Of a DNA stretch of 64,000 nucleotides, positions 22,893-64,000 are shown piece after piece; position 1 is the first letter of the stretch, and each line of letters opens with the position of its first letter. The notes beneath the pieces were generated by a model. It saw only the letters and a program-made list of their open reading frames with translations, was not told where the DNA came from and made no database searches. Source of the DNA: Bacillota bacterium (lineage in GTDB: Bacteria; Bacillota; Proteinivoracia; UBA4975; VEMY01); contig VEMY01000008.1 of assembly GCA_009711825.1 (NCBI GenBank), forward strand, positions 15,345 through 79,344, in the 5' to 3' direction. Made by a program: the position numbers and the translations under genes.

Positions 22893-22894
22893 GC

Positions 22895-42667: not shown

Positions 42668-42769
42668 TGTCTCCAGTCTAACCCGACCATCCAAACCTGT
42701 CAACAGCAGCGGGGACGTTTCCGTCTGGCAGGCAAACAAACTCTCCTGACCCGCAACCAGGTTTGATTT

Positions 42770-49075: not shown

Positions 49076-50056
49076 CTATTTGTCATCTTCGGATTTAAGT
49101 CTTAATATCTCCTCGGCAGTCCGTTCTTCGGTGACCAGGACATTGAGTAGCCCGGTTTTGAGCACTGCATAAATAGCCCGCGCCTTGCCTATCCCTCCGG
49201 CAACCGCCATTCGCACTCTGGCGCGGCTAATCTGCTCCGGTGTAGCGGCAATCAGGCCATTTTGGTTGGAAGTAGTAGGTATTAAACCATTTTGCAGCAC
49301 AAACCAAAGACAGAAATCGGCAACCGGTTTTTCTTTGACCTCTTGGACAAATGCTTGCAGGCCGCGATAGAAATCCGGGTCCTCAAGCCGGCGCAGGGTA
49401 GGGATTGCCCCAATTCCAAGCACCGCCCAATCCATTTTATCCCAGAGTTGTACCACTTCCTGGGAATGGGGTTCCGCCAGAACCGATTCTCGAATTTGCT
49501 TACCGGAAACAAGAGCCGGCGCATAAAGATATTTGGACTTGCCCCCCAGTGCTGTGGCCGTCCGGGTAAGGATTTCAGTAATTGGGTAACCGGCATCTCC
49601 CTCTCCCAATCCGCCTGACAGTGGAATTACCGTCGGTTGTAATGTCTGGTCAGCGGGGAGTTTGTTGGCCATTTCGTAAATACTGTGCCCCCGTCCCATG
49701 CCGAGGATTGCCTGTTCCGGTAGGTTTTCGCCAATGTACTCAGCCGCAGCCCTGGCAATTTGCGGAACGATAACCTCCTGCTGGTCAACTGCCATCGGGG
49801 TTACAATCGCGTCTTGCAGGGCAAAAGCTTGTTTAAGTTTTTGTTGAATGACTGTATTTTGGGCAATTGGGTTGCGAACGGTTATTTCCACAATTCCATT
49901 CTCCCGGGCCTGGCTTAAGAGCCGAGAGACCTTTGGTCGGGAAATCTCCAACATCTCTGCGATTTCTTCTTGAGTTTTGCCCTTTTGGTAGCAAAGTTGA
50001 GCCACTGCCACCATCAAACTGATGTCATCGCGGGATGGTTTTTTGCTCCTCGCCAT
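49076..50056 (-). CDS. SorC/DeoR-family sugar-binding transcriptional regulator
   Basis: 326 aa; N-terminal HTH (KTQEEIAEMLEISRPKVSRLL) plus SorC sugar-phosphate binding domain. Confidence 0.8.
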   Translation of the reverse strand: MARSKKPSRDDISLMVAVAQLCYQKGKTQEEIAEMLEISRPKVSRLLSQARENGIVEITVRNPIAQNTVIQQKLKQAFALQDAIVTPMAVDQQEVIVPQIARAAAEYIGENLPEQAILGMGRGHSIYEMANKLPADQTLQPTVIPLSGGLGEGDAGYPITEILTRTATALGGKSKYLYAPALVSGKQIRESVLAEPHSQEVVQLWDKMDWAVLGIGAIPTLRRLEDPDFYRGLQAFVQEVKEKPVADFCLWFVLQNGLIPTTSNQNGLIAATPEQISRARVRMAVAGGIGKARAIYAVLKTGLLNVLVTEERTAEEILRLKSEDDK

Positions 50057-50175
50057 AATTCACTCCACCTCGCTGCCAAGATTTACTAATATTCCATAAG
50101 TATGGTCTTATTATAAATGTAGGTATTTTATTTTGCAACCAAAGAAGGGACTCGTTGACGAGTCCCCTCCCCCTA

Positions 50176-50964
50176 TTACAGTTCTTTTTTGGCTTCCTCG
50201 ACAGTTGCGTCTTCGTGGAGAATGCGCGCAATTGCCCTGGTGATTTTTTCTGGCTCCGGCTGCCGCCAGACATTGCGGCCCATGGCTACGCCCCGGCCGC
50301 CTGCCTGCACAGACTCATATACCTGCTGCAGCAATGCGATTGGGTCTTTTGCTTTGCCGCCGCCCAGCACAACGATGGGAGCAAAAGTGCCAGCAACAAC
50401 ACTCTTGAAGCTCTCGATATCACCTGTGAAATCAGTTTTGATAAAGTCTGCGCCCAGCTCAACACCCATCCGGCAAGCGAGGGCAATGCTCTCGGGAGTG
50501 CGGGAATCTTCGCCACCTTCAAAGCCCCGGGGAAGCATTTCAGCCATCAAAGGCATGCCCCATTTGTAGCAATCACTAGCCAATTCTGAGAGGTAAGGGA
50601 GCGTTTCAGCCTCAAACTTGGAACCCGGGAAGCCCATGCAGACCACGCCGTCAGCGCCCAGACGCAGGGCATCTTCTACGGAGTAGATCCGGCGAATCGG
50701 GTTGCTGTTCTGAGCCATTTGGGAATAGCCGCCATCAACACGCAGCACGAGGCCGGCGGAACCGATGGAATCGGCGAACTTGCTAGCGATACCGAAGGTT
50801 GTCATGATTACGTCGGCGCCACCGGCGACAACCCGCTCAATCTTCTCAGCCGGGTTTGCGAGTTCTGGCAAAACGTTCATCCCAGAACCATGGTCCATGG
50901 CGACAATTAAAGTGCGACCTGTCTTGCGGAAAATGTTGTTTAGTCTTTTGGTTTTCATCTTCAA
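50176..50964 (-). CDS. class I aldolase of the DhnA/FbaB (archaeal-type FBP aldolase / LsrF / DeoC-LacD) family
   Basis: 262 aa; TIM-barrel class I aldolase motifs (IVAMDHG..., GADFIKT, Schiff-base Lys region). Confidence 0.65.
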   Translation of the reverse strand: MKMKTKRLNNIFRKTGRTLIVAMDHGSGMNVLPELANPAEKIERVVAGGADVIMTTFGIASKFADSIGSAGLVLRVDGGYSQMAQNSNPIRRIYSVEDALRLGADGVVCMGFPGSKFEAETLPYLSELASDCYKWGMPLMAEMLPRGFEGGEDSRTPESIALACRMGVELGADFIKTDFTGDIESFKSVVAGTFAPIVVLGGGKAKDPIALLQQVYESVQAGGRGVAMGRNVWRQPEPEKITRAIARILHEDATVEEAKKEL

Positions 50965-50974
50965 TTCCTCCTGA

Positions 50975-52015
50975 TTACATAGTTAAAACGATACGATAAG
51001 TGGCGTTGTTGCTTGCTTTGTCCAGAGCGGCCTTGGCATCGGCCAGAGGCTGTGTTTCCTCAATCAGTTCGGCTGTGCTGATGATGCCTTTGGAAATCAG
51101 GGCTGCTGCATCCCACATATCCCGCAGGTTTTTGCCCTTTACTCCGGTTAGGGCAATGCCGGTGTCGTGAATCAAGTTCGGGTTAATGTCCAGGGGCTCT
51201 CCCGGATGGGCAGAGGCGAAATAGAGCACACTGCCATAATTGGCTACCATCTTAATTGCATCATCATTGGCATGTTTGTTACCGATGGTAATGATCACAG
51301 CTTCGGCCTTTTTGCCTTCGTTCAATTCCTGAACTCTGACCTCAACATCTTCCTCCGCCGGATTAATAACAGCGTCAGCGCCTAGCTTTAAGGCCTTTTC
51401 TCTGCGACCGGCATCAAGTTCACTCACAATTACTCGGGCACCACTGCTTTTCGCAGCCAGGACATTTAGCAAGCCCATGGTGCCGGCGCCGATGACAACA
51501 ACGGTATCACCGAGACGCACATTCACTTTCTTGATTCCCTGAAGCACACAGGCCAATGGCTCGGTGAGCGCCGCCTGCTCGAACGGAATATCTTTGGATA
51601 TCTTCAATGCCCGCTTGGAAGCGATAACCATATACTCAGCCATCCCGAACAAGCCGACAACACCATCAATTTTGGGCAATGGCGCCTTCTTGACGCAGTG
51701 CTCTTCCAAACCTTTGCTGCAGTTGTCGCATTCGCCGCAGAAGTAAGGAACACCCAGGGCCACATGATCGCCCACCTGAAGATCAGTCTGACAGTCAGGG
51801 CCGATCTTCTCAACCACACCAGAAACTTCATGGCCCCAACACCCCGGATAGGGGAATTTTTTAACACCTGTATATACCCGTTGTTCCATTGTGCACAGTG
51901 CGACTGCACGTTGGCGGATTAAAACCTCGCCCGGGCCCGGCTCGGGCACTGGTAATTCGCGAATTTCAAACTCGTAAGGAGCGGTCATTACTCCTGCTTT
52001 CATTGTCTTTGTCAT
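50975..52015 (-). CDS. zinc-dependent medium-chain alcohol/polyol dehydrogenase (sorbitol/threonine dehydrogenase-like)
   Basis: Start ATG 52013-52015 (RBS AGGAGG); GHEVSGVV Zn-ligand region, GAGTMGLL Rossmann motif, structural-Zn Cys cluster (CGECDNC). Confidence 0.8.
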   Translation of the reverse strand: MTKTMKAGVMTAPYEFEIRELPVPEPGPGEVLIRQRAVALCTMEQRVYTGVKKFPYPGCWGHEVSGVVEKIGPDCQTDLQVGDHVALGVPYFCGECDNCSKGLEEHCVKKAPLPKIDGVVGLFGMAEYMVIASKRALKISKDIPFEQAALTEPLACVLQGIKKVNVRLGDTVVVIGAGTMGLLNVLAAKSSGARVIVSELDAGRREKALKLGADAVINPAEEDVEVRVQELNEGKKAEAVIITIGNKHANDDAIKMVANYGSVLYFASAHPGEPLDINPNLIHDTGIALTGVKGKNLRDMWDAAALISKGIISTAELIEETQPLADAKAALDKASNNATYRIVLTM

Positions 52016-52166
52016 TTCACTTGTCCTCCTTTCTCGGGGGTACCCGAGAATGCTAGATAATTTTTTCACATACTGCTGTGGTCGGGGTATGACAATTGGT
52101 GTAATTTGCGGGCAAAGGCCACACCTTTGCCCGCTTTGATTAGATTGAGAGAACTAATTAGATGTC

Positions 52167-52928
52167 TTAGGGAACGAGTACCAGGTTGAAGTAGGTCAGG
52201 AGAATCGCGAAGAACATCAGGCCAAAGATTAGGTAGACAGGCTTGACACCCTTGCGCAATAATGCGTAAGCCAGGAAGAACATACCCAGGGCCGGGATCC
52301 CAGGCATCAGCTGGTCGAGGATTTCCTGAAGGTTGATAACCTGCTCACCAGTGGTGTAGGTAATGTTCAGGGTGATGTCCACGAGGCTGGCAACCATGGT
52401 GCCGACCAAAACGAGACCGACAATCTTTGCACCTTCAGCTACGGTGTCAATGATACCGCGCATCCGGGAGAGAGCTTCTACACCCAGGTTATAGCCGAGG
52501 CCAACCAGGTAGTATGCGCTACCTGCAAAGAGGGCAATCAAGGTGAACACGGAGAAGAACCAACCAAAGGAGTTACCGTCGAGAACCATGTTGGTACCAA
52601 TGGCAAGAATAATCGGGACCAAGCTGGCGTGGAACAGTGAGTCGCCGATACCAGCAACGGGACCCATGGTCGCAACCTTCAGACCCTGGATAGCTTCGCC
52701 GTCAATGGTGTCTTTGTTCTCAATCCGCTGTGTTTCCATTGCTGCAACCATGCCGGGCACAACAGCGCCGGCGTAAACGTTGGTGTTCCAGAAGGTTATA
52801 TTTCTGGTCATGGACTCAGCGCGTTCTTCGTCAGTCTTATACTTCCGGAGCACAGGCGCCAACTGATAGGCAAAGCCCCAACCGCCAAGAACTTCAAAGG
52901 AAGCATTGTAGTACCAGCAGAAGTTACG
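52167..52928 (-). CDS. PTS mannose/fructose/sorbose-family IID component, portion downstream of an in-frame TAG; N-terminal about 38 aa are encoded in-frame upstream, fused to IIC
   Basis: Homology to ManZ starts before the TAG at 52929-52931 (KEPLSFADRVSMA*RNFCWYYNASFEVLGGWGFAYQ aligns with KKLTQSDIRGVFLRSNLFQGSWNFERMQALGFCF). Confidence 0.6.
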   Translation of the reverse strand, partial: RNFCWYYNASFEVLGGWGFAYQLAPVLRKYKTDEERAESMTRNITFWNTNVYAGAVVPGMVAAMETQRIENKDTIDGEAIQGLKVATMGPVAGIGDSLFHASLVPIILAIGTNMVLDGNSFGWFFSVFTLIALFAGSAYYLVGLGYNLGVEALSRMRGIIDTVAEGAKIVGLVLVGTMVASLVDITLNITYTTGEQVINLQEILDQLMPGIPALGMFFLAYALLRKGVKPVYLIFGLMFFAILLTYFNLVLVP

Positions 52929-53825
52929 CTAGGCCATGGAGACACGATCAGCGAAGCTCAGAGGCTCTTTGACGATCTCGCCGTCAGCTGCAGCAGCAGC
53001 TTCTGAATCTTCTACAGAATCCTGACCATTGCGGGTCTTCATGTAGAACACAACCAGACCGGTAACAACCAGAGCCAAAGCCAGCGGGGTCATGTTGGTG
53101 GTCATGCCAATGGCAAAACCGGCAACAAACAGGAGAATCAGAGAACCAGGGTTCATGCTGTAGATCAAGAGCGCGAAACCGGCAACAGGGAGCATTCCCT
53201 GCATAACGCCAAAACCATTTTGCAACCACTCAGGAATTAATCCGAGCAGGCGACCAACCAGGGGGATACCATAGTAAACACCCAGGAAGGCGGGGACAGC
53301 ATTGATAAGTGTAATCGCGATAGGCTGTAACAGGGCATGCCAGAGCTCCAGCTTCTTGATATCGCCTTTCTTGGCAGCTTGGATTGCAATCCGCTCATAG
53401 AAGAAAGACATGATTGTCAGGTTGCCCAAGAAGAGCATCAGCGAGAATACCGAAATCGGGATTGCCATGCCCAACACAGCGCCGTGATCGGCACCGAGAA
53501 CGCTGGCGAAGATGACAGCCATAATAGTGGCGACCATCGGCCGCGGCGGAACCGCAGCGCCAACGATAAACACACCAAAGAATAAGAGCTGGATCAGAGC
53601 GCCGACTTGAACACCGGTGGCAAAGTCACCAATAAACAAACCGGTCAGACCACCAATCGCCAGGGGATGGTCAGAAATGAAACGCCATACTTGCAAGATA
53701 CCGATAATAATACCATGGGCTGGTGTTTCTTTCTGCCTAATAGCGGCGATCAGCTGGAGGGGCCATGCTGTTACGAGAAACCAGCCACCTGCCAAAAATG
53801 CAGCAATTAAAGCTGTTCCTAACAT
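52929..53825 (-). CDS. PTS mannose-family IIC component, translationally continuous (same frame, no stop) with the IID N-terminus
   Basis: 298 aa ORF; the IIC body ends near ...LVVTGLVVFY and the frame continues MKTRNGQDSVEDSEAAAAADGEIVKEPLSFADRVSMA, which is the IID N-terminus. Confidence 0.7.
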   Translation of the reverse strand: MLGTALIAAFLAGGWFLVTAWPLQLIAAIRQKETPAHGIIIGILQVWRFISDHPLAIGGLTGLFIGDFATGVQVGALIQLLFFGVFIVGAAVPPRPMVATIMAVIFASVLGADHGAVLGMAIPISVFSLMLFLGNLTIMSFFYERIAIQAAKKGDIKKLELWHALLQPIAITLINAVPAFLGVYYGIPLVGRLLGLIPEWLQNGFGVMQGMLPVAGFALLIYSMNPGSLILLFVAGFAIGMTTNMTPLALALVVTGLVVFYMKTRNGQDSVEDSEAAAAADGEIVKEPLSFADRVSMA

Positions 53826-53852
53826 CTGATTAAACCTCCTATTAATAATTTA

Positions 53853-54338
53853 TTAGAGATAACGGGTAATATCTGTGGGCCGATCCTGGGGTACTACCCT
53901 GATCTCACATTTGACACCTAGTTCCTGCAGACGCTTGAAATCTGCGCGATCCTCATCGGTCAGCATCACCGACTTAGTTACTTTGGTAGCCTGGTCGGTT
54001 TTACCCATGGCGCCCATATTGCCAATCACGAAATGCTCAAACTTTACGCCACCTTCTTTGAGGGCCAAAACTTCGTCGGGACCGGTGGTGATTACAAATA
54101 CCCGGGTGCTGTCCCCAGCCAAGGGACCCGTGAGCTTTTCGATTGCGTCTGCCACTGTGACGACCTCAGTCTTAATGTTCTTGGGCGCTGTGAGTTCAAC
54201 GACACTTTTACGCACCTTGTCGTTCACGACCCGGTCGCTGGCAATCATGATCCGGTTGGCATTGGCATGGGAAATCCATTTGGTAGTTATCTGACCATGA
54301 ATCAAACGGTCATCAATTCTGATAAGGGCGATAGCCAA
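53853..54338 (-). CDS. PTS mannose/sorbose-family IIB component
   Basis: Start TTG 54336-54338 (RBS AGGAGGAA): MAIALIRIDDRLIHGQI..., active-site His region. Confidence 0.8.
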   Translation of the reverse strand: MAIALIRIDDRLIHGQITTKWISHANANRIMIASDRVVNDKVRKSVVELTAPKNIKTEVVTVADAIEKLTGPLAGDSTRVFVITTGPDEVLALKEGGVKFEHFVIGNMGAMGKTDQATKVTKSVMLTDEDRADFKRLQELGVKCEIRVVPQDRPTDITRYL

Positions 54339-54403
54339 AGTGCATTCCTCCTGAATTAGTATTAAATACATGCCGAACCATCACTATTGAAGCTTGAGGA
54401 GCA

Positions 54404-54793
54404 TTAGATTTTCAGTTGCTGTATCCCCTCCTTACCCAAATCTACAAGCTTTTCGGCTATCTGGATCGGCGCTTCACCGCTACCCCGCATACCGACAGCT
54501 TCCAACAGCATTCCCAGATTCACACCCACCAGGCATACCGCGTTTGTTTCAGCGGTTACAGCCAGTGCAATGTTGCAAGGGGTGCCTCCAAACAGGTCTA
54601 CGGCGATTAACGCCCCCTGCCCGGTATCGACTTCTGCAACTGCTGCTAACATTTTTTCTTTAAGAACCTCTGGGGCCATGTCCGGTTCCAGATTGATTGC
54701 CTTAAACTGCTCCTGGGGTCCGACAATCAACTCCATTGCCTCCGCAAAACCCTGGGCAAGGCCACCATGGGCTGCTACTACGAGTCCTATCAC
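54404..54793 (-). CDS. PTS mannose-family IIA component
   Basis: 129 aa; MIGLVVAAHGGLAQG... (phosphorylatable His) and EIIA-Man fold. Confidence 0.8.
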   Translation of the reverse strand: MIGLVVAAHGGLAQGFAEAMELIVGPQEQFKAINLEPDMAPEVLKEKMLAAVAEVDTGQGALIAVDLFGGTPCNIALAVTAETNAVCLVGVNLGMLLEAVGMRGSGEAPIQIAEKLVDLGKEGIQQLKI

Positions 54794-54798
54794 TTAGG

Positions 54799-54812
54799 TC
54801 ACCTCCTCTGAA
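54799..54812. promoter_or_regulatory. palindromic operator TGAACAACTGTTCA (GAAC-N4-GTTC core) abutting the RBS of PTS IIA, with extra TGTTCA/TGAACA half sites at 54821 and 54926
   Basis: One of three near-identical sites in the window (54799, 60619, 62347). Confidence 0.55.
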
Positions 54813-54820
54813 CAACTGTT

Positions 54821-54932
54821 CAATACTATTGTTCACTGTGCTGCAATACTTCGCCATTGACCGCATATATTCCTGCTATGAATACAAGTTTTTTTGAAAT
54901 TTTGTACTGAAATTTTGTGCAGCACAGTGAAC
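54821..54932. repeat. 16-bp perfect inverted repeat TGTTCACTGTGCTGCA ... TGCAGCACAGTGAACA separated by 80 bp in the grdA-PTS intergenic region
   Basis: Arms at 54821-54836 and 54917-54932. Confidence 0.7.
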
Positions 54933-54941
54933 AGGGAGGAT

Positions 54942-55397
54942 TTAGCTATCGCCCCGGTAGGTGGCGACTTCCTTCTTGATTTCATCTACATCCAAAACCA
55001 TCTCCATCATGCTGATTTGCTCTTCCCAGATGGCTGGATCAATCTGCTCTTGCAGCTCAAAAATATGAAACACTGGGAGTTCCAACTGAACTCCCGCCAA
55101 TGGACCGGCGAAGGTGGGGTCGCCGCTGGTCACTGTCTCGGCAGCCAGGCCGCTGGCTTCCGCCTCGGCCCCTCCCAATACAACAACCAATTGCTCACGG
55201 CCATACTTTTCGGCCAGAGCCTTGACCCGCGCCTGATTTTCCAGATCCATGGCGCCTGCTGCAGTTCAGACAAAACATTCAGTTGCAGAGAAAACTATTT
55301 CCGCGCCGGCAGCTTCCAGACATTCATTGATTGCCGGCCCGGGCAATCCATCCCGGTCGCCCAGGACAATTGCCTTCTTGCCTTTTAAGTCAATCAT
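54942..55397 (-). CDS. grdA: glycine/sarcosine/betaine reductase complex selenoprotein A (GrdA) with in-frame UGA selenocysteine codon at 55266-55268
   Basis: Start ATG 55395-55397 (RBS AAAGGAG): [61 protein letters not shown]... matches the invariant GrdA CFVUTAAGAMD motif. The ORF track shows only the post-UGA part (54942-55250). Confidence 0.85.
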
Positions 55398-55433
55398 CTT
55401 AGTACTCCTTTCTCAGTTTCGAATTTGTGCTAA

Positions 55434-56744
55434 TTAATATGCTTCCGCGAAGAAGCGGCTGTGCCCCGACTGATTGCCGGAACAGTATAGCAATGTGGTG
55501 GTGGGAAATTCAATTGGGTCAAGAGCGTCAGGGAACCGCCCGCCGGCTTCTTTATCAAGACGAAGCTTAGGGCCCCCAACAACATTATCCATCCGGGGCA
55601 GCTGCACCGGCTTCTCAATGCTGGAGCCGCTGACAATTGCGTCGGCCTCAGGGACATCGTCAACCAGGAGTATTCCCTCGGTTCCATCAGCGCCGCCGAA
55701 TTCAAAGGTTACGGTGGAAGCCTTGATCCCAGCCTTCTCCGCCAGCTGGATTGTCAGCATGCCGTCGGTGGCAGCGTTGCCACCACCTTCCCAGGCCATG
55801 ACAAGTCCGTCGGCCTTGAGCATCCGGGCCAGCTTCACACAGACCCCGGCGCAACGCACCTTATGCCAATGGGTGGGGTTGTGGCTGCGGGAGAAAATGA
55901 CGCCCTTGAAGTTCAAATCCTTGCCGTGACGGCGGTAGAGGTCCAACAGAATCGGGTGATTCACATGTAGATAGGTGGGAACCTTAAAGGCTGGCCACAC
56001 ATAGTTTCCGCTGACAACGCAGCCGTCCAGCATCTCATTTGGATGAAGAACCGTCGGCACCAGCTCCTCCACATCCTTGCCATAGAGGAATGTGTTGGCG
56101 TAGACACCTTGGTTCTGCACCTGCCAGACCAAAACCACGTTGGGAAGATCTGGATTTGTCTCTTCGATGGAGAACAATTCCTCGTCATCTGCTTCACCCT
56201 GAGCTGCCTTAGCAGCCAGGTATTCGGCTACTTTTAAGCTGGAGAGCCGGATATCCCGGTCATACTCTTCAGCAGATTTGCCGGGTTTCAGCTCATAGGT
56301 CATTACCAGATTCACAGTCTCCGAAAAGGGAGTGATCCCCTTGTACGGTCCTGTCATATCCATGATTGCTTCCCGGGGATACAAGAGGCCGCTGCTGGCA
56401 CTGGCGCTGTCCCAGGGCAAGGGCGCCGACTGCATGACGGTAAAACCGTCTAAAACAGCGGTAGTGCCTTCGCCTATCATCTCCGGCGAGCCGAAGAATC
56501 CGGAATATGGCACGCCGCGGCCGTCAAGCCTGGCCATAGGCTGCAATGTATCCAAAAGGTGAATTATCCGCGTGGACTCGCCCGGGTGGACCAAATGGAA
56601 CTCAATTCTTTCGATATTTTCGGTCTGTTCGGCGGCCAGTCGCTCAATCTCTTCTTTATTTATGGTCAGCTTGCCCGATTCCAGGGCTGTTTGAGCGCCC
56701 CAGGCGGCAGACTGAACCCGATAGTATTTTCTGGTCAGTTCCAT
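55434..56744 (-). CDS. grdE: glycine/sarcosine/betaine reductase component B proprotein subunit (GrdE/GrdG/GrdI family)
   Basis: 436 aa; Gly_reductase family architecture, positioned 3' of the selenoprotein B gene. Confidence 0.7.
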   Translation of the reverse strand: MELTRKYYRVQSAAWGAQTALESGKLTINKEEIERLAAEQTENIERIEFHLVHPGESTRIIHLLDTLQPMARLDGRGVPYSGFFGSPEMIGEGTTAVLDGFTVMQSAPLPWDSASASSGLLYPREAIMDMTGPYKGITPFSETVNLVMTYELKPGKSAEEYDRDIRLSSLKVAEYLAAKAAQGEADDEELFSIEETNPDLPNVVLVWQVQNQGVYANTFLYGKDVEELVPTVLHPNEMLDGCVVSGNYVWPAFKVPTYLHVNHPILLDLYRRHGKDLNFKGVIFSRSHNPTHWHKVRCAGVCVKLARMLKADGLVMAWEGGGNAATDGMLTIQLAEKAGIKASTVTFEFGGADGTEGILLVDDVPEADAIVSGSSIEKPVQLPRMDNVVGGPKLRLDKEAGGRFPDALDPIEFPTTTLLYCSGNQSGHSRFFAEAY

Positions 56745-58081
56745 TATCTTTCCTCCTTTTCCAACCGGACATGAAACAGTGTCGGCTCTTCTACCGGTGT
56801 TTGCAATGCCTCCACAGCCTTCAGGAGCATTTGCTTCTGGAACTCTTTCTCCCGGTCAGCCGGTAGTTCCGGCGCTCCTGCCGGCGATGTGAACTGGTTG
56901 CCGGCAATGACCCGGTTGGCCCCTACCGACAGGGCAATGGATGTAAAGGCGGTGATCAGGACAGCAGAGATGCCCACACGTTCGAGTTCCTTGGTAATCG
57001 TTGCACCGCAACGAGTACAAGTACCTCACGTGGAAGTAAGAATCGCTGCCGGCACACCCGCTTCCAGAAGCTCAGCGGCGATTTGCGCGCCTAATCCTTC
57101 ACTGGTCTTAATGTTGGTGCCAACACCAGCGGTCGAGTAGAACTTGGGATAAACGCGGCCAATCTTCCCTTCCTGCTCCAAAGCGCGCAGGGGGCTATAA
57201 GGCACTACCCGGGACGGGTCTTCATTAACCAAAGTAGTGTCGAAACCACCGTGGATAGACTCATACTCGCCGGCAGCTAACTCTTCCAGTCCTTCCAGGC
57301 TGTAGCTGCCGTAGCTGGTGGAGAAGGCCTGCTTTAACCCATCCGGGTTGCCGGTGGGCACCAAAGCGCCGGTTGTAATCAGGGCAAATGTTTTGGTTTC
57401 AGGCTGCTCAAGAACCGGTGCTGGTGGCACCTGCTCAAAGCCGCGCAGCGGCACTTCGGTCTCATATTCTTCGCCCCGCAATTTCTTAAGCAACAGTTCC
57501 ACAGTCCGTTGGGCTGCAGTCTTTTCATGCCATTCGTTGTAGCGATAGCCCCGGGGGAAGTAACCTTCCAGACGGGCGGGCCCAACTTCCTCTCCCTTTG
57601 CCAGCTTGAGGGCAAATGCGGCCAGCGGTGGCAGGGCCTTACGCATACCGGCTGCTGTTTCCGGTGTGCGGATGATATAGTTATCAGATACAAACATTGG
57701 CACCGCCGGGTTCTCCCAATACATGGCGGTTACTGCGGGAATCCCAAACTCCCGACGCACAAAATCTACGAACTTGCCGCAGGCAACACCGTAGCGCCCA
57801 GCGTTGAAGGCGGGCCCGGCAATCACTACGTCAGGCTTGACCTCCTGAATAATTTCCCGCAGGCGAGGCAATAATCCCTCGAATTTGTCATCATCATTAA
57901 AATAGTTGTCACCGCAGGCAATGGTTTTTACCACTTCCATCTCATCCTGCCAAAACTTATCCATACCGAGAGCCGGCCCCAGCTTTTGGTCGTATTCCTG
58001 TAACCCAATATCTGCTTTGTCTTCGCCGCCAATTCCGGCGTAAAACTGATTGATGTAGTACAAGGCTCTTTTCTTAGACAT
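56744..58081 (-). CDS. grdB: glycine/sarcosine/betaine reductase component B selenoprotein (GrdB/GrdF/GrdH family) with in-frame UGA at 57026-57028
   Basis: The 351 aa ORF ending AAILTST is followed, in the same frame, by TGA and a 94 aa continuation (GTCTRCGATITKELERVGISAVLITAF...) that is the ORF-track 56744-56977 entry. U-x-x-C-x-x-C context; total about 445 aa, typical for GrdB. Confidence 0.8.
56999..57013 (-). ncRNA. SECIS-like hairpin 12 nt downstream of the grdB-like UGA
   Basis: Minus-strand CGTTGC-GGT-GCAACG (6-bp stem, GGU loop) at the spacing expected for a bacterial SECIS. Confidence 0.5.
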
Positions 58082-58099
58082 TGACTGACCTCCTTTAAT

Positions 58100-58387
58100 C
58101 TAGCCGCCGGCCATCGGCGGCAGAAATTTCACGTAATCTCCGTCCTGCAGGGAGGTGGCCAGCTGCTTGGAACCAAGAATATTATTGGCGCCCACCCAGA
58201 TCAGGGCCTGCAGCTGGTCGTTTGTCGCAGCCTCCCGGGCCACTTCCCGGTCAAACCGTTCCCCCAGCTGTTCTCCCAACTGCGCCAGCAGCTCGGCAAC
58301 AGTGCTGCCCTCAGGCAAGGTCACCGTAAGTTCCGGTGCCGGCGCATATTCCTGAAAGAAGGAGAAAAAGCGAACCTTTATTTCCAA
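58100..58387 (-). CDS. MoaD/ThiS family ubiquitin-like sulfur-carrier protein
   Basis: 95 aa ending in ...PPMAGG (C-terminal Gly-Gly). Confidence 0.7.
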   Translation of the reverse strand: MEIKVRFFSFFQEYAPAPELTVTLPEGSTVAELLAQLGEQLGERFDREVAREAATNDQLQALIWVGANNILGSKQLATSLQDGDYVKFLPPMAGG

Positions 58388-60201
58388 GGGAGTTCTACTC
58401 CCAGGCGCTCACAGGTTTCAGCAGTGGGCACGCCATCTGTATCCCAACCCCGGACCTGGTAATATTCCTGCAGCATGTTGATAAATGCTTGCCGGTCAAG
58501 GGCCTTTTCCTCGCCTTCAACTTCAATTGGCTCAAAGCAGCGTTCTGGCAGCATATCCTGGTCACCGGTGAGGCCCGAAGCCAGGTTGTACATACGCTCC
58601 AGATTCCAAATCCGCTCACCAATCAGGCGGAACTCTTCGAGATCCTTGTTCATACCGGTGGCCGCGTTCAGCAGTTCCACAAATAGGGTATGGGGCAGCT
58701 CGAAATCCGCGAACCGACAGCTAACCAATGTGAACAGAGCATTGACGATATCCTGTATTTCCCGAACAACCTTGGCCTTACCCTCGGTAGATTCCATGGG
58801 TATTTCACCCATCAACTCCATACCGATTGGCCCACGCTTATGGCAGGCGCCCCGGTTGGAGGTGGCAAAGGTGAGGGCAATCCCGGCCATGCGCTGGGGC
58901 ATCCAGGCGGCAAACTCCATCCCCTTAGAGTTCATGGCAAAGTCAGCACTCCCCTGGCCAATCCGCTGAGCCATCAGCCGGGTGCCGTCAGCCAGCATAT
59001 CGCCGACGCCTTCCCGTCTAGCCATCAGTTCCAGGGCTTTGAGGATTGCTTCACCGTTGCCAAACTCTAAGTCAAAGCCCACTTCCTCGGGCTTAAGTAG
59101 ACCGCGCTCAAAGCATTCCATGGCAAAGGCAATCGTGCAACCAGCAGAAAGGGTATCCATACCGTATTCCTCACACAATTCATGGGCCCGGGCCAGAACC
59201 ATCGGATTATCGTTGAAACAATCGGAGCCCAGGGAATACATGGTTTCATACTCGGGTCCCCGGGTAAACAGACCATCCTTTTCGCCTTCGAAGGCGTGGA
59301 GCTGTCCACAATGAACCGGGCAACCAAAGCAGGCAATCCGACGGGAGCGGGCCAGCTTATGGTAGGCCGAGCTATCAATCTTATCGCCGGTGGCGAAGTG
59401 TGCATATTTGTGGTTCTTGGTCGCAAGAGCGTAGCGCTCGTTAATCAGACTCATGCCGCCGCCGGTGCCGTAACGGGAGAACACACCCAGAAGGTTGAAC
59501 TGGTTCTCGGTGGCCTGCTTAAACTTAGCGAAGGCCTCGTCTACTTTGGCGCCGAAGGTCTCGGGATCATTGACTTTGACACCGAGATTACCTTTAAATG
59601 CAACCCCTTTAAGATTCTTGCTGCCCATGACAGCACCAGAACCGCCGCGGCCAAAGACCCGGGTCGAAGCGATAATCGCGGCAAAGCGCACCTGGCTTTC
59701 ACCCGCGAGACCGATGGCTGCAGTGCCACATTCCTCCCCTTCCTGGTCGCGCATGTGGTCCTCCACGGCATTTACACCCTTGCCCTGGAGCTCGGGGCAT
59801 TCCACAAACTTTACACCCACCGGTGTTATCAGGACATAAGATAAATTCTCGCAGGCGCCTTCAAAGATCACCAAATCAAACCCTGTGCCCTTAATCTTCT
59901 GAGCAAAATTGCCGCCACAGTAACAATTGATGACGCCGCCGGTTAAGGGAGATTTGGTAACAAGGGCTGCCTGGGCAAACAGAGGAGCGCCAGTGCCGGA
60001 TAGCGGCCCGGTGGTGAAAATCAGCTTGTTCTCCGCTTCCAGGGGATCGACTTTGGGGTCCACCTCCTGGGTTAGATACCAGACCCCGGTGCCCATGCCA
60101 CCTACGTAATTCTCCAACACAGCCGTGGGAATCTCCTCTATCTGCCAGGACTTGTCCGTGAGGTTTACCCGCAAAAGTTTGCGATTATAGGCTTCGTACA
60201 T
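58378..60201 (-). CDS. aor: tungsten-containing aldehyde:ferredoxin oxidoreductase (AOR family)
   Basis: Start ATG 60199-60201 (MYEAYNRKLLRVNLTDK...); AOR N-terminal domain plus conserved Cys ligands for the [4Fe-4S] cluster; about 607 aa. Confidence 0.85.
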   Translation of the reverse strand: MYEAYNRKLLRVNLTDKSWQIEEIPTAVLENYVGGMGTGVWYLTQEVDPKVDPLEAENKLIFTTGPLSGTGAPLFAQAALVTKSPLTGGVINCYCGGNFAQKIKGTGFDLVIFEGACENLSYVLITPVGVKFVECPELQGKGVNAVEDHMRDQEGEECGTAAIGLAGESQVRFAAIIASTRVFGRGGSGAVMGSKNLKGVAFKGNLGVKVNDPETFGAKVDEAFAKFKQATENQFNLLGVFSRYGTGGGMSLINERYALATKNHKYAHFATGDKIDSSAYHKLARSRRIACFGCPVHCGQLHAFEGEKDGLFTRGPEYETMYSLGSDCFNDNPMVLARAHELCEEYGMDTLSAGCTIAFAMECFERGLLKPEEVGFDLEFGNGEAILKALELMARREGVGDMLADGTRLMAQRIGQGSADFAMNSKGMEFAAWMPQRMAGIALTFATSNRGACHKRGPIGMELMGEIPMESTEGKAKVVREIQDIVNALFTLVSCRFADFELPHTLFVELLNAATGMNKDLEEFRLIGERIWNLERMYNLASGLTGDQDMLPERCFEPIEVEGEEKALDRQAFINMLQEYYQVRGWDTDGVPTAETCERLGVELPWK

Positions 60202-60596
60202 TACTTGCTCCTCCTTTCCCGGGAAATTGCGCCGGTAGAGCACACCTTGGTGCAGTGATACTCTCCGTTGCAGGTGTCGCAGATGTGAATCTTTCCTTCA
60301 AAAGTCAGGACAGCATCAAATGGACAGGCCTCCACACAGAGCCCACATTCCGTGCACAAATCGTAGTCCACGGCGATAACTCCGTCCTCAGCCTGGGTCA
60401 AAGCGGTTACCGGACATACTTCCACGCAGGCCGGCTTTTTGCACTGACGGCAGTTCTTAAGCTCCGGTAAACGGGGCCATTTGCCATCGATACCTAGGCG
60501 CGCCTTTGCCGGATTATATTCTTTTTCCTTGACAAAGGAGCACTTCAAGCGACAAGCGTAACATTCGGTACACTCCTGAGCAGTAAAATACAGCAC
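60201..60596 (-). CDS. 4Fe-4S dicluster ferredoxin-domain protein (multiple CxxCxxCxxxCP motifs)
   Basis: Start assigned to GTG 60594-60596 (RBS AAGGAGG 8 nt upstream); CTECYAC, CRQCKKPACVEVCP, CTECGLCVEACP motifs; the stop overlaps the AOR start. Confidence 0.7.
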   Translation of the reverse strand: MLYFTAQECTECYACRLKCSFVKEKEYNPAKARLGIDGKWPRLPELKNCRQCKKPACVEVCPVTALTQAEDGVIAVDYDLCTECGLCVEACPFDAVLTFEGKIHICDTCNGEYHCTKVCSTGAISRERRSK

Positions 60597-60618
60597 ATCT
60601 CTCGCCTCCTTATTAGAC

Positions 60619-60632
60619 TGAACAATTGTCCA
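60619..60632. promoter_or_regulatory. palindromic operator TGAACAATTGTCCA with downstream TGTTCAG half site (60640-60646), immediately upstream of the ferredoxin-AOR operon RBS
   Basis: Same architecture as the sites at 54799 and 62347. Confidence 0.55.
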
Positions 60633-60820
60633 AAACTTTTGTTCAGTATTACCATTCGCTCTGTCCTTCGCGAATTCCTGCCCAAGAACCAAAAAAATTT
60701 TTTATATCTGTAGCAATAAAACTGGGAGGGCAGTGCCCTCCCAATTCAGATTAAGCAATAGCAGCGACCGAGGGCGTGTATATAAAGCACGCAGGTGGTC
60801 GACTAAATAACCACTACGAA

Positions 60821-62221
60821 TTAATCGTCCAGGGTGACTCCGTGCAACTCGGCAATAATACGTGCCACATCAGTGTTGTCCAGCAGGCCTCCAAAGGACT
60901 CCGCTCCAGGGCCATAGGCATATAACGGCACTGGATTAGCAGTGTGTCCTTCGGTGGGACAGATGTCGCGGATCGGGCCGTAAATTACGCCGGCATTGGC
61001 ACGCTTTGCGACAATATCTCCCAGGCGGCCACCAGAGAGGAAGGTGGGCAGCTCCGAGACTTCTTGCAGATATTCTATTTCATCATCGGTAAGGTCGCTG
61101 ATACCAGTGTAAGTGTCGATAACTTCACGCAGACTTTCGACGACAAAATTATTGTCTTCATCTTTGTCAATTTGAGCCATGATGAATGGCGGTGAAGCGT
61201 TTACACCTTCGATGAGCTCAAAGTCCAACGGACCGGTTACGGCAAAGCCATAAGTGTCATGGTCGGCTGTAATAATAACCAGGGTGTCATCACGCTCCCG
61301 AGCAAAGTCCAAAGCGGCTTTTGCGGCAGCGTCAAAGTCTTTCATTTCAGCGATGACACCAGGGACGTCAGCGGCATGGGCCGCATGGTCAATTCTTGAC
61401 CCTTCAACCATCAGGAAAAATCCGTTTTCATTCTGGCTCAGGAATTCAATCCCCTTGCTGGTCATCTCAGCCAGAGAAGGCTCATTGGTGTTGAGCAGCG
61501 CTTGGTCCAGCTGATAGTTCAGGTGCCCGGTGTTGAACAGTCCCAGGAGTTTTTCGCCGCTAGCCGCAGCCAGTTCATCACGGTCCGCTACATAGGTATA
61601 ACCTTGCTCAATTGCCTCCTCCACCAGGTTGCGACCATCGGTGCGACGCCCGCCTTCTTCACCTTCAGGCAAAAAGCGATCACGGCCACCGCCCAGCAAT
61701 ACATCAAGGCCGGTTTCAAAGACCTGAGTGGCTATCTCTTCGGAAGCGGCCCTGCTATCAACATGAGCAGCGAAACCGGCAGGAGTAGCGTCGTAAACTG
61801 TATTAGAAACTACAATACCAGAAGCCTTGCCAGCTTCCATAGCGGCCTGGGCCAGCGACTTTACTGGCGTTCCGTCTGGTTTTACACCCAGCATGCCGTT
61901 GTTTGTCTTATGACCGGTGGCAAGCGCAGTGGCCGCAGCAGCTGAATCGGTAACATGGAAGTCAGCGGAAGCGGTCAGCACCAAACTTGTTACAGGCACC
62001 TGCTCCATGTGCAGCAATTCACCCGGTTCAGCATTAAAAAGCCGGGCAAACTCAACATGGCCCACGCCCATGCCATCGCCAATAAGCAGAATCACGTTCT
62101 TGACTTCTCCTTCTCCGCCGCTTTCATCGCCGCCGCTGTCAACGTCGATCGGTTCCAGCTCGGCGCAGCCAACTGCGGCGACCATCATCAGCGCCAGAAG
62201 TAACACTAAAAACTTCTTCAT
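60821..62221 (-). CDS. phoA: alkaline phosphatase (PhoA family) lipoprotein
   Basis: 466 aa; lipobox VGC; DGMG, active-site Ser region (TDSAAAATALATG), metal-ligand motifs. Confidence 0.85.
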   Translation of the reverse strand: MKKFLVLLLALMMVAAVGCAELEPIDVDSGGDESGGEGEVKNVILLIGDGMGVGHVEFARLFNAEPGELLHMEQVPVTSLVLTASADFHVTDSAAAATALATGHKTNNGMLGVKPDGTPVKSLAQAAMEAGKASGIVVSNTVYDATPAGFAAHVDSRAASEEIATQVFETGLDVLLGGGRDRFLPEGEEGGRRTDGRNLVEEAIEQGYTYVADRDELAAASGEKLLGLFNTGHLNYQLDQALLNTNEPSLAEMTSKGIEFLSQNENGFFLMVEGSRIDHAAHAADVPGVIAEMKDFDAAAKAALDFARERDDTLVIITADHDTYGFAVTGPLDFELIEGVNASPPFIMAQIDKDEDNNFVVESLREVIDTYTGISDLTDDEIEYLQEVSELPTFLSGGRLGDIVAKRANAGVIYGPIRDICPTEGHTANPVPLYAYGPGAESFGGLLDNTDVARIIAELHGVTLDD

Positions 62222-62346
62222 TAGAAATCTCTCCCTCTTATATCATACTTGTGCCGATTAAAATGACCTGTTTCAGTGCAACAAAAACCACAAGTACTCC
62301 CAGGGTAAAATCGTAGACCTCAGCCGATATATCTCCCCCCTCATGT

Positions 62347-62360
62347 TGAACAATTGTTCA
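62347..62360. promoter_or_regulatory. perfect palindrome TGAACAATTGTTCA plus TGTTCAA half site (62367-62374), about 125 nt upstream of the alkaline phosphatase start
   Basis: Third copy of the TGAACAAnTGTTCA operator-like motif. Confidence 0.55.
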
Positions 62361-62542
62361 TGACCAATGTTCAATTCAAGTATTCTTCCCCTGGAAGCAA
62401 AATTCCTGCCTGTAGACGGAACTTTTTCCCGATTTTTGTTTAACGAAGTAAAATCGCTTTGAAGCAGATCCCGTTTTTCCAGCCCGACAGATCGTCGAAC
62501 CAGAATAAAAAGACGGCAGGCTCCATGCCTACCGTTTCCTAT

Positions 62543-62857
62543 TTAGCCCAGCTGCTCCTTGAGCGTTGTTTCCACATCTTCTATCGTAAAGTCCTTGCTC
62601 AGTTCCGCCACCTTTTCGCCATCCTTGTAAATCAAAATGGTGGGCAGCCCCAGCACCTTCTGGCCGATGGCCAGGCGGCGGTTCTCCAAAATGTTTACCT
62701 TGCCAAATTTAACCCCCTTATATTTCCCGGCCAATTCGGTAACATGAGGCATTAGCTCCATACAAGGTTCACATTTGGGACTCCAGAAATCCACCAATAC
62801 CAAACCCTGACTGTTCAGCACCTGCTCTTCAAAATTCTCTTTGTTCAGTTCCAACAT
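62543..62857 (-). CDS. trxA: thioredoxin with non-canonical CEPC active site (grd-associated thioredoxin type)
   Basis: 104 aa; LVDFWSPKCEPCMELMP in place of WCGPC. Confidence 0.8.
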   Translation of the reverse strand: MLELNKENFEEQVLNSQGLVLVDFWSPKCEPCMELMPHVTELAGKYKGVKFGKVNILENRRLAIGQKVLGLPTILIYKDGEKVAELSKDFTIEDVETTLKEQLG

Positions 62858-62860
62858 ATG

Positions 62861-64000
62861 CTACACTCCCTTATATTCTTTAATTAGTGCGGCCAAAGCT
62901 TGCTCGCTCAACTGGCCGCTGGTCCGGGCCACCGGCTGACCGCCAGCAAAGAGGACCACCGTTGGCAACTCAGATATCTCATAACGACGGGAAATCCGCT
63001 GGTTGCGGTACGTATCTATCTTTACCAACTGTAGTTCTTCACTGTGCTTGGCGACAAAATCCTCCACTGCAGGCACCTGCTCCAAACTGGCCTGGTGCAT
63101 CGGGCTCCAAAACAACACTGCCACCGGCTTGGCCTGATTCAACACCTCTGCCTGGAAATTGGCTTCCTCATGAATATATTTCTCGGCAGCAACTGCGGCA
63201 ACAGCGCCATCAGCAGCGGCAGTCACAACCTGGCGCAAAAACTTAGTGCGCACATCGCCTACAGCGTAAACACCGTCCACAGAAGTCTCCATCATTTCAT
63301 TGGCGACTATATACCTCTGTTCATTAAGCTCAACAATCCCATCAAGGAATCCGGTCCGGGGCAGAGTGCCGACAAACATAAATACGCCGTTGGCTTCCAA
63401 ATCCCAGGTCTCACCGTTCTTCAGATTCTTTACGGTCACGGACTCAACAATCCCGTCGCCATTGATTGATTCCAGCACTGAATTCCAGACAAATTCAATC
63501 TTGGGATTCTTGAACGCCCGCTCTTGAATAACCTTGGTGGCATCCAACACGCCCTCATCATGGATTACGATGATACTGACTTTGGCGGCGAACCGGGTCA
63601 GATACATTGCCTCCTCGATGGCAGCATCGCCATTGCCGACAACGACTACATCCAGATCCTCATAAAAGTCGGCATCACAAGTCGCACAGTAGGACACACC
63701 TTTGCCCTTAAGCTCGCTTTCGCCGGGTAGTCCCAGCTGACGTGGCTCAGCGCCGGTGGCGATGATTACGGCATTGGCGACATACTCGCCTTTTTTGGTC
63801 TTTACAAGCTTTTCAAAGCCGGAAAAATCCACGCTCATAACCTCATCCTTGACAAACTGACAGCCAAAGTGACTGGCATGCTTATGCATTTCCGCTGTCA
63901 ATTCCGGCCCGGTGGTGCCATCAAAGAAGCCAGGATAGTTCTCCATCTCCTCGGTGGTGGCCGCCTGACCGCCAGGGGCACCCTTTTCGATGATTAAAGT
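62861..64000 (-). CDS. trxB: thioredoxin reductase (partial; N-terminus beyond window) with C-terminal thioredoxin-fold extension lacking CxxC
   Basis: CATCDADFY redox centre, NADPH-binding GNGDAAIEEA; C-terminal about 110 aa Trx-like domain with WSPMHQ in place of WCGPC. Confidence 0.8.
   Translation of the reverse strand, partial: TLIIEKGAPGGQAATTEEMENYPGFFDGTTGPELTAEMHKHASHFGCQFVKDEVMSVDFSGFEKLVKTKKGEYVANAVIIATGAEPRQLGLPGESELKGKGVSYCATCDADFYEDLDVVVVGNGDAAIEEAMYLTRFAAKVSIIVIHDEGVLDATKVIQERAFKNPKIEFVWNSVLESINGDGIVESVTVKNLKNGETWDLEANGVFMFVGTLPRTGFLDGIVELNEQRYIVANEMMETSVDGVYAVGDVRTKFLRQVVTAAADGAVAAVAAEKYIHEEANFQAEVLNQAKPVAVLFWSPMHQASLEQVPAVEDFVAKHSEELQLVKIDTYRNQRISRRYEISELPTVVLFAGGQPVARTSGQLSEQALAALIKEYKGV

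Follow-up and report, generated by a model that had tools for sequence, protein, structure and literature searches.

A selenoprotein reductase locus with tungsten oxidoreductase and phosphotransferase modules: a candidate variant of the riboflavin-induced fin neighbourhood in a Bacillota bacterium

We analysed a 64,000-nt stretch of DNA (hereafter, the window) from a Bacillota bacterium, positions 15,345 to 79,344 of contig VEMY01000008.1 in assembly GCA_009711825.1, which encodes a selenoprotein reductase of the Grd family. The minus strand from 49076 to 64000 is a single co-directional gene string, running from the thioredoxin reductase gene trxB through to a SorC-type regulator (Table 1). 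The names GrdB' and GrdE' are coined here for the reductase pair, which forms a clade of its own. The locus appears to be a self-contained catabolic island that combines a complete Grd-type reductase machine (selenoprotein B' with E', selenoprotein A, TrxA/TrxB, and protein C just past the window edge) with an upstream chain-trimming module. The latter comprises a mannose-family phosphotransferase system (PTS), a Zn-dependent alcohol dehydrogenase (Zn-ADH), a class I aldolase, and a tungsten aldehyde:ferredoxin oxidoreductase (AOR) with a ferredoxin and a MoaD-like partner. We lean, with some reserve, towards reading the locus as a version, with AOR and PTS modules, of the fin neighbourhood that riboflavin induces in Clostridium scindens, and thus as encoding a flavin-type side-chain pathway. 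An original prediction, made from the DNA sequence, had given the order trxB-trxA-phoA-fdx-aor-moaD-GrdB-like-GrdE-like-grdA-PTS, which was borne out by gene calls and hidden Markov model (HMM) matches. It overlooked the conserved second half of the cluster, which lies 3' of grdA and consists of the PTS, Zn-ADH, class I aldolase and SorC regulator genes.

A TGA at 57026-57028 interrupts the GrdB-like frame (...AAILTST-TGA-GTCTRCG...), and read-through yields a 445-aa protein that matches TIGR01918 in a single stretch over residues 5-436. The protein passed both cut-offs for the selenoprotein B superfamily (TIGR01918, 480.2 bits against 65.45; PF07355, 435.8 bits against 22). The selenocysteine (Sec) motif U-xx-C-xx-C is present (TST-U-GTC-TRC), and a selenocysteine insertion sequence (SECIS) element follows it. 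The Rfam model SECIS_4 (RF01990) matched the 38 nt directly past the TGA (56988-57025) at 44.5 bits, compared to a gathering score of 38 (E 4e-7). This match includes the CGUUGC-GGU-GCAACG hairpin noted in the original prediction, which starts 12 nt after the UGA and was recovered by folding. SECIS_4 was found again in 11 of 15 other related loci searched, and TGA occupies the same site in all 69 copies from related loci. The conserved TGA, the SECIS_4 match and the unbroken TIGR01918 match together establish the GrdB-like gene as a genuine selenoprotein gene.

The grdA frame (...ECFV-TGA-TAAGAMD..., TGA at 55266-55268) gives a 151-aa product with a C-xx-U motif. It scored 249.7 bits against NF040748 (cut-off 130), and its TGA was retained in 19/19 copies from related loci; the match and the retained TGA confirm that it too is a selenoprotein. 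The original prediction had called for a formal SECIS search, which succeeded for GrdB' and not for grdA. At grdA there was no Rfam match at E up to 10, the local fold was no better than shuffles, and a consensus fold of 14 sequences had five invariant pairs with zero covariation. Since neither a formal SECIS element nor covariation was found at grdA, Sec decoding of this gene rests on the conservation of its TGA. As had been proposed, GrdB' and grdA should each be annotated as one gene. The product of the gene between them, GrdE', scored 409 bits against PF09338, 252.1 bits against GrdG (NF040793, cut-off 780) and 127 bits against FarE (NF053623, cut-off 675). Its Cys242 is invariant in 16 homologues and corresponds, by residue number rather than by direct alignment to canonical GrdE, to the pyruvoyl precursor Cys242 of Clostridioides difficile GrdE (PMC9908766). 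GrdE' is thus a probable proprotein, with Cys242 as the presumed pyruvoyl precursor.

Judged by curated cut-offs, the predicted reductase is not GrdB, GrdF or GrdH. GrdB' scored 450.8 bits against the GrdB equivalog TIGR01917 (cut-off 602.2), 474.7 bits against the sarcosine reductase GrdF (NF040794, cut-off 800) and 414.7 bits against the betaine reductase GrdH (NF040795, cut-off 775). When 1.84 billion representatives clustered at 50% identity were searched, the GrdB' clade amounted to one or two representatives (58% and 51% identity), and all the remaining ones were at most 46% identical. In a neighbour-joining tree, which was neither anchored nor rooted on characterised enzymes, the window protein, its relatives and those two representatives grouped as a single clade, separate from everything else. 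Ten neighbouring representatives were sampled (with sequences truncated at Sec), and the GrdB, GrdF and GrdH cut-offs were reached by none of them either. The phylogeny that had been suggested for this protein resolved a distinct clade. No solved structure for GrdB' or GrdE' was found by sequence search. Annotation routinely breaks such genes in two at the UGA and wrongly names them glycine or betaine reductase, and homologues are recorded under names such as 'glycine reductase', 'sarcosine reductase' and 'Betaine reductase component B alpha subunit'.

The original prediction had noted that there is no GrdC or GrdD (protein C) in the window. This is true within the 64 kb, where neither grdC nor grdD was found, but it is misleading. 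Contig L001 is 100.000% identical to window positions 50821-64000 over 13,180 nt and extends 408 nt past the edge. On the minus strand, L001:3-263 (~64146-64406) encodes the final 86 residues of GrdD directly upstream of trxB, which places the end of grdD (protein C alpha) ~146 nt past the window edge. The fragment aligned to positions 293-380 of the 380-position GrdD model (E 1.7e-29) and is 62% identical to residues 760-844 of a GrdC-GrdD fusion in an 84%-identical relative (L073:1907-4441; 844 aa; ACP_syn_III + DUF5940 + FA_synthesis). The sequence past the edge comprises these 408 nt only, in which grdC and selABCD of the window organism were not seen. The GrdD fragment suggests that the whole Grd machine is present at the locus and is cut by the window boundary. 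The earlier idea that the AOR acts instead of the acetyl-phosphate route is unsupported: it loses its basis because grdD lies directly upstream of trxB, and in relatives the cluster itself includes GrdC-GrdD.

Homologues of GrdE' number in the hundreds (55-88% identity). A genome scan with one genome per species returned 63 loci, C. scindens not being among them, and synteny was scored over 67 non-redundant loci by tblastn with a panel of neighbour proteins, ~10 kb being covered on each side. B' precedes E' in all 66 loci that have both genes. The gene order that had been described as non-canonical is therefore real and a trait of the clade; in canonical grd operons the proprotein gene comes first, the reverse of the order seen here. 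A class I aldolase and a Zn-ADH occur together in 35/67 loci, 32 of which also have the kinase/adenylyltransferase RibF, and by inspection an APC permease is present in nearly all RibF loci. The three aldolase and ADH loci that lack RibF are exactly the three that have a mannose-family PTS, namely the window, L002 and Tepidimicrobium xylanilyticum (L004), the last of which combines its PTS with an ALDH (aldehyde dehydrogenase). Behind GrdE', about a dozen loci have TrxB-TrxA-GrdA; the string GrdE'-TrxB-TrxA-GrdA is followed by GrdC-GrdD in 14 loci and by SelA-SelB in 9, with L025 also carrying tRNA-Sec.

The closer relatives L002, L073 and L074 (79-85% identity) share the order AOR-B'-E'-PTS-ADH-aldolase-SorC, most of them with ThiS and GrdA. 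In L073 the string is fused GrdCD-TrxB-TrxA-AOR-ThiS-B'-E'-GrdA-PTS-ADH-aldolase-SorC, and the unrelated genes on both flanks define it as a self-contained island. The island is spread over Clostridia, Christensenellales, Tissierellales and a Treponema. The last of these is the spirochaete Treponema putidum ATCC 700334 (L052), with a full ALDH-GrdB'-GrdE'-aldolase-ADH-permease-RibF set. Its occurrence in a spirochaete, together with flanks that differ even among the close relatives of the window, points to horizontal transfer. PTS and AOR loci do not group apart in the GrdE' tree but are mixed with RibF and ALDH loci, L004 being sister to L011; this fits the swapping of modules around one reductase.

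Several variants of the island were seen. L025, L061, L016, L024, L031 and others are super-clusters of up to 15 genes plus a tRNA, in the order SorC-aldolase-ADH-permease-RibF-ALDH-GrdB'-GrdE'-TrxB-TrxA-GrdA-GrdC-GrdD-SelA-SelB (with tRNA-Sec in L025); in them GrdB'E' are the sole protein-B genes seen beside proteins A and C. A second type (L070, also L021 and L022) is very widespread, being found in 181 blocks of the contig index. It lacks both RibF and PTS, and consists of SorC, Zn-ADH, a class II ketose-bisphosphate aldolase, a xylose-isomerase-like TIM-barrel protein, an ABC sugar transporter (SBP_bac_1), GrdB', GrdE' and ALDH; its substrate may differ. In a minimal type (L013 from Bariatricus massiliensis, L007, L029, L036, L037 and L069) GrdB'E' are accompanied by no more than an APC permease and ALDH, in some cases close to an Fe-ADH; aldolase and RibF are both lacking within 10 kb. 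For these loci the starting compound could be an alcohol or aldehyde (hydroxyethylflavin set free by other bacteria, for instance) or a different amine.

The AOR of the window is similar over its full length to solved tungsten AORs (1AOR, 359 bits; 8C0Z, 356 bits) and carries AFOR_N and AFOR_C domains. An aldehyde oxidiser lies within ~10 kb of GrdB'E' in 59/67 loci. It is an NAD-type ALDH in 54 loci and an AOR in 5 loci (the window, L002, L008, Alkaliphilus peptidifermentans L017 and L060), with ferredoxin and MoaD in all five; the two types were never found together. Alkaliphilus peptidifermentans DSM 18978 combines RibF with AOR. The claim that AOR, MoaD and ferredoxin belong to the cluster was thus upheld, as the trio recurs with this reductase and excludes ALDH. 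Its exchange with ALDH argues for the oxidation of an aldehyde to an acid upstream of the reductase. The protein that had been called a polyferredoxin has 131 aa and several 4Fe-4S cluster motifs, and we assign it the putative role of AOR electron acceptor or relay. The fin-type ALDH had its top score with betaine-aldehyde dehydrogenase, whose substrate is likewise of the N-CH2-CHO type.

The link to flavins comes from C. scindens, which turns riboflavin into lumichrome anaerobically (Quiles-Perez et al., J Bacteriol 2026, earlier on bioRxiv; PMC13492142). Riboflavin induces one neighbourhood in this organism, finA-K ('fin', flavin-induced neighbourhood), which includes genes for RibF (finB), a class I aldolase (finC), an ADH (finD), an ALDH (finG) and a Grd-family pair (finHI). 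Faecalicatena fissicatena, which is without finGHI, stops at hydroxyethylflavin. The authors suggested that finBCD free a triose and that finHI then take off the two-carbon remainder, and they named Muricomes intestini as a carrier of a C. scindens-like neighbourhood; lumichrome and related catabolites affect the activation of MAIT (mucosal-associated invariant T) cells (PMC13492142). That study is confined to Lachnospiraceae, contains no enzymology, and leaves selenocysteine, GrdA/C/D, AOR and PTS unmentioned. We found that the M. intestini locus (L040) reads aldolase-ADH-SorC-permease-RibF-ALDH-GrdB'-GrdE', matching the fin layout. GrdE' and GrdB' of the window are 63% and 59% identical to its proteins, with which they form one monophyletic clade apart from other family representatives.

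The window shares with the fin neighbourhoods of C. scindens and M. intestini the GrdB-like and GrdE-like pair (FinHI) in B-then-E order, the DhnA-type class I aldolase (FinC), a Zn-ADH of uncertain orthology to FinD and the SorC-type regulator, with the FinC- and FinD-family genes adjoining. In contrast, it has the tungsten AOR, ferredoxin and MoaD where fin has the NAD-dependent ALDH (FinG), and the mannose-family PTS where fin has the APC permease and RibF (FinB). Its ADH is only ~37% identical to that of fin, and the locus also has a grdA, trxA and trxB of its own, with grdD alongside. The way these modules complement one another across loci suggests that the PTS is functionally equivalent to permease plus RibF in uptake and phosphorylation, and the AOR trio to ALDH in turning the aldehyde into the acid.

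All four Pfam domains of a mannose-family PTS (EIIA, EIIB, EIIC and EIID) were found in the window, but the subunits miss all TIGR subfamily cut-offs and are highly divergent (Table 1). They are only 24-37% identical to those of Tepidimicrobium L004, so the PTS was recruited separately in the two lineages. In L002, L073 and L074, EIIC-EIID is one fused gene of 548-549 aa. In the window, a TAG at 52929-52931 (minus strand) replaces a Trp codon (TGG) conserved in those three relatives, within ...SLAWRNFxWYYNASF. This could be a nonsense mutation disabling or splitting the transporter, a sequencing error or a suppressed stop. A PTS enzyme I gene (5040-6764) lies ~45 kb from the cluster PTS. The best NCBIfam matches of the Zn-ADH were polyol and threonine dehydrogenases, all under cut-off, and it is 35-39% identical to the ADHs of RibF-type loci, so that orthology is uncertain. 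Identity of the aldolase to its counterparts in RibF-type loci is 42-56% (48% for the M. intestini copy). The enzyme scored 178 bits against MJ0400 (2qjg), with a Lys aligned to K184, which we take to be the Schiff-base residue of MJ0400. The SorC regulator occurs in most related loci.

All steps of the proposed pathway are inferred. The PTS would import riboflavin or a close N-ribityl analogue and phosphorylate the terminal hydroxyl of the ribityl chain, taking the place of the permease and RibF kinase of other loci. The Zn-ADH would oxidise the hydroxyl adjoining the phosphate to give a ketose-1-phosphate analogue, which the class I aldolase would cleave into dihydroxyacetone phosphate (DHAP) and an N10-CH2-CHO product (formylmethylflavin). 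The AOR, replacing the NAD-ALDH, would turn formylmethylflavin into the N10-CH2-COOH acid (carboxymethylflavin, an N-substituted glycine) while reducing ferredoxin. The selenocysteine of GrdB'E' would then attack and cleave the N-CH2 bond, releasing lumichrome and passing the carboxymethyl group to the Sec of GrdA. Lastly, GrdCD would make acetyl phosphate and hence ATP, and TrxA/TrxB would re-reduce GrdA with NAD(P)H; the steps from the reductase to acetyl phosphate are drawn by analogy with established glycine-reductase chemistry. The net result would be fermentation of a five-carbon side chain to DHAP and acetyl phosphate. In redox terms the ADH would yield one NADH and TrxB would consume one NAD(P)H, leaving the reduced ferredoxin or NADH from aldehyde oxidation to spare. 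Chemical loss of the side chain of carboxymethylflavin, with lumichrome as the product, is known (PMC9070421).

Several points weigh against a flavin pathway at this locus. The flavin link itself derives from transcriptomics and the analysis of products in a single organism that is only distantly related. No FMN (flavin mononucleotide) riboswitch was found at the gathering score in the window, at E up to 1 in 49-64 kb, or in 15 related loci, and neither RibF nor a flavin transporter is present in the window. To our knowledge, a PTS that transports riboflavin is without precedent, and given the TAG in EIIC-EIID the transporter may be defective. The low identity of the Zn-ADH to fin-type ADHs means that its substrate could differ. 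The invariant Cys242 of GrdE' has no obvious role for a tertiary aromatic nitrogen such as that of a flavin. Elsewhere the reductase stands beside an ABC sugar transporter and class II aldolase, or beside permease and ALDH only, and this variety of transporters and aldolases hints at a wider substrate range. The window lineage is also the most divergent branch, its GrdE' sharing 60-67% identity with the rest; among the rest the identity is 62-82%. The full proposal, in which the divergent mannose-family PTS would take up riboflavin or another ribityl heterocycle (e.g. the deazaflavin core of F420) and the AOR-selenoprotein route would yield DHAP and acetyl phosphate with release of the ring, is no firmer than a tentative and rather doubtful one.

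The alternative that survives best keeps the same chemistry and changes the substrate. A non-riboflavin compound X-CH2-(CHOH)3-CH2OH would likewise be trimmed to X-CH2-COOH and then cleaved reductively; it might be a deazaflavin (FO, the core of F420, for example), a ribityl-lumazine, a ribityl-aminouracil or an unknown N-alkyl polyol. We regard this as unlikely, if still a serious contender. The divergence of the Zn-ADH, of the PTS subunits (EIIC, for example) and of the window's GrdB'E' branch speaks for it, as do the lack of a flavin-specific gene or FMN riboswitch in the window and the variation of transporter type across the clade (APC permease, PTS, ABC). However, PTS and RibF are strictly complementary among the aldolase and ADH loci. 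The GrdE' tree, in which PTS loci fall within the RibF loci, is also better explained by module swapping around one substrate than by a switch to another substrate. By our own reasoning, only a five-carbon N-linked polyol chain yields DHAP and N-CH2-CHO, and the natural chains of this kind known to us are essentially those of ribityl flavins and lumazines.

Within this alternative we also considered an Amadori product (fructosamine). Known fructosamine transporters are APC permeases, ABC systems with SBP_bac_1, and PTS-Man systems with a LevR-type activator, and the same three types are seen here; one variant locus also has an AP_endonuc_2 protein, which was weighed for this reading. Pfam and NCBIfam scans revealed no FrlB- or FrlD-like deglycase or kinase, and aldol cleavage of a 1-amino-2-ketose would, as we reason, yield no N-CH2-COOH acid. 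Fructosamine therefore survives only as one possible other substrate. Reductive deamination of glucosaminate or another amino sugar was dropped given the RibF, aldolase and ALDH pattern and the fin study.

It is improbable that the enzyme is an ordinary Stickland-type reductase for glycine, sarcosine, betaine or a small N-substituted glycine, with the sugar genes as unrelated neighbours and ALDH or AOR supplying the acid from an amino-aldehyde (e.g. choline via betaine aldehyde to betaine, or ethanolamine to glycine). In its favour, no protein-B genes other than GrdB'E' were seen beside GrdA/C/D in 14 loci (over ~10 kb on each side), the ALDH scores highest as betaine-aldehyde dehydrogenase, some loci consist of only permease-ALDH-GrdB'E' with or without Fe-ADH, and Cys242 is conserved as in pyruvoyl-forming GrdE. 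Yet GrdB' falls under the GrdB, GrdF and GrdH cut-offs and GrdE' far under that of GrdG. The aldolase and ADH recur in 35/67 loci and RibF in 32, in the same gene string across Clostridia, Christensenellales, Tissierellales and the Treponema, and the C. scindens homologues are induced by riboflavin (PMC13492142). The scores for both subunits also remove the case for betaine as substrate of a GrdHI-like enzyme, which had been proposed because two OpuA importers lie in the window; these are ~37 kb away, behind Pst/Pho, AcrB, Etf and other unrelated genes. That the TGA codons are true stops in decayed remnants deserves next to no credence: gene callers split both genes there and the TAG in the cluster PTS resembles a real nonsense mutation, but both TGA codons are kept in every copy with coding sequence conserved on either side, the SECIS match follows the GrdB' TGA directly, and relatives have selA, selB and tRNA-Sec in the same cluster.

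The favoured fin-type pathway can be set beside three known systems. The glycine, sarcosine and betaine reductases (GrdE/B, GrdG/F and GrdI/H) belong to the same families, with the same Sec motifs (U-xx-C-xx-C in B, C-xx-U in A) and SECIS elements. Because the accessory proteins A, C and thioredoxin are also the same, GrdB'E' presumably share the mechanism from carboxymethyl-selenoether to acetyl phosphate. Unlike them, B' is under all three substrate-specific HMM cut-offs, and GrdB'E' are constantly linked to an aldehyde oxidiser and usually to an aldolase, an ADH and a kinase or PTS. In the DHAP shunt and the sulfo-EMP pathway, a kinase gives a ketose-1-phosphate that a DeoC/DhnA- or class II-type aldolase cleaves into DHAP and a substituted aldehyde, which is then oxidised or reduced. 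The resemblance is that DHAP is freed and a short aldehyde keeping the substituent goes to ALDH or ADH; here, in contrast, the ketose phosphate would arise by polyol dehydrogenation rather than aldose isomerisation, and the acid product would be handed to a selenoprotein reductase. The fluoroacetate reductase of the FarE type (Cloacibacillus; NF053623) is a Grd-family enzyme acting on X-CH2-COOH in which X is not a simple amine, which shows that the family accepts other leaving groups. GrdE' is well below the FarE cut-off, as given above.

Table 1. Predicted features of the reductase locus, in window coordinates
Feature	Position	Strand	Basis
trxB, thioredoxin reductase with fused C-terminal thioredoxin domain	62861..64000, 5' end past window edge	-	TIGR01292 305 bits; Thioredoxin domain at residues 259-357
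trxA, clostridial-type thioredoxin, putative electron donor to GrdA	62543..62857	-	NF047697 140.9 bits (cut-off 140)
phoA, alkaline phosphatase, lipoprotein-type signal peptide	60821..62221	-	PF00245 330 bits
Ferredoxin-like protein, 131 aa, several 4Fe-4S cluster motifs	60201..60596	-	Fer4 family matches and gene call
Tungsten-type AOR	58378..60201	-	PF02730 219 bits; PF01314 392 bits
MoaD/ThiS-family small protein beside AOR	58100..58387	-	PF02597 44 bits; TIGR01687 48.7 bits (cut-off 49.5)
GrdB' (FinH-like), selenoprotein B, 445 aa, Sec at TGA 57026-57028	56744..58081	-	TIGR01918; PF07355
Bacterial SECIS element directly 3' of GrdB' UGA	56988..57025	-	Rfam RF01990 SECIS_4
GrdE' (FinI-like), partner subunit, probable proprotein, 436 aa	55434..56744	-	PF09338 409 bits
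grdA, selenoprotein A, 151 aa, Sec at TGA 55266-55268	54942..55397	-	NF040748 249.7 bits
Mannose-family PTS EIIA	54404..54793	-	PF03610 79 bits
Mannose-family PTS EIIB	53853..54338	-	TIGR00854 134 bits (cut-off 164) and gene call
PTS EIIC-EIID, split by in-frame TAG 52929-52931	52167..53825	-	TIGR00822 113 bits (cut-off 340); TIGR00828 172 bits (cut-off 293)
Zn-ADH, medium-chain	50975..52015	-	PF08240/PF00107
DhnA/ADH-synthase-type class I aldolase (FinC-like)	50176..50958	-	NF005556 235 bits (cut-off 241)
SorC/DeoR-type sugar-binding transcriptional regulator	49076..50056	-	PF04198 165 bits

The trxB product called in the identical contig L001 (L001:322-1548) has 408 aa, with a separate trxA next to it, and a terminator-like hairpin follows trxA at 62513-62535. 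The phoA gene after it has no counterpart at the same position in the three closest relatives (L073, L002 and L074) and is probably an insertion rather than a conserved cluster member. It may be an unrelated Pho-regulon insertion, a Pst/PhoU/PhoRB cluster being present at 18574-25459; alternatively, it could be an extracellular FMN/FAD phosphatase supplying the transporter.

Other genes of the window were noted in passing. On the minus strand, 38397-42690 encodes a GntR/FCD regulator, EtfB, EtfA with an N-terminal ferredoxin domain and an FAD-linked oxidase, a set that resembles the electron-bifurcating lactate (or glycolate) dehydrogenase clusters of anaerobes. A 133-aa ABC ATPase fragment at 45331-45732 (minus) is probably a gene remnant. 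Adjoining it, at 45866-48934 (minus), are genes for a BcrAD/BadFG-type activase ATPase and a pair of DUF2229/HGD-D-like proteins, which together form a 2-hydroxyacyl-CoA-dehydratase-activase-like set; no dehydratase was identified for it. The lysyl-tRNA synthetase (9348-11021) is of class I, which is unusual in bacteria; its nearest relatives are from a Bacillota metagenome-assembled genome (79%) and, among named groups, Symbiobacteriaceae (54-57%), and by this similarity the window organism falls in an uncultured lineage of Bacillota. A DUF1576 membrane protein is encoded at 2102-3352, and a 390-aa open reading frame at 6879-8048 had no Pfam match.

It was only in 2026 that the anaerobic breakdown of riboflavin to lumichrome was linked with a gene neighbourhood, in work that contained no enzymology. 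If the fin-type reading of this locus holds, the C-N-cleaving step would fall, in the window and its 66 relatives, to a distinct and always selenocysteine-containing clade of Grd-type reductases. The wiring of this GrdB'E' clade to protein A, protein C and thioredoxin implies a gain of ATP via acetyl phosphate. The pathway would be modular, with ALDH or tungsten AOR, RibF plus permease or PTS, and class I or class II aldolase. It predicts that carboxymethylflavin is the substrate of the reductase, and that activity depends on selenium and, in AOR-type loci, on tungsten. The PTS would be the first for a vitamin or cofactor. Together, these findings would point to an energy-conserving, selenium- and tungsten-dependent catabolism of flavins that is widespread in anaerobic Bacillota beyond the gut Lachnospiraceae.

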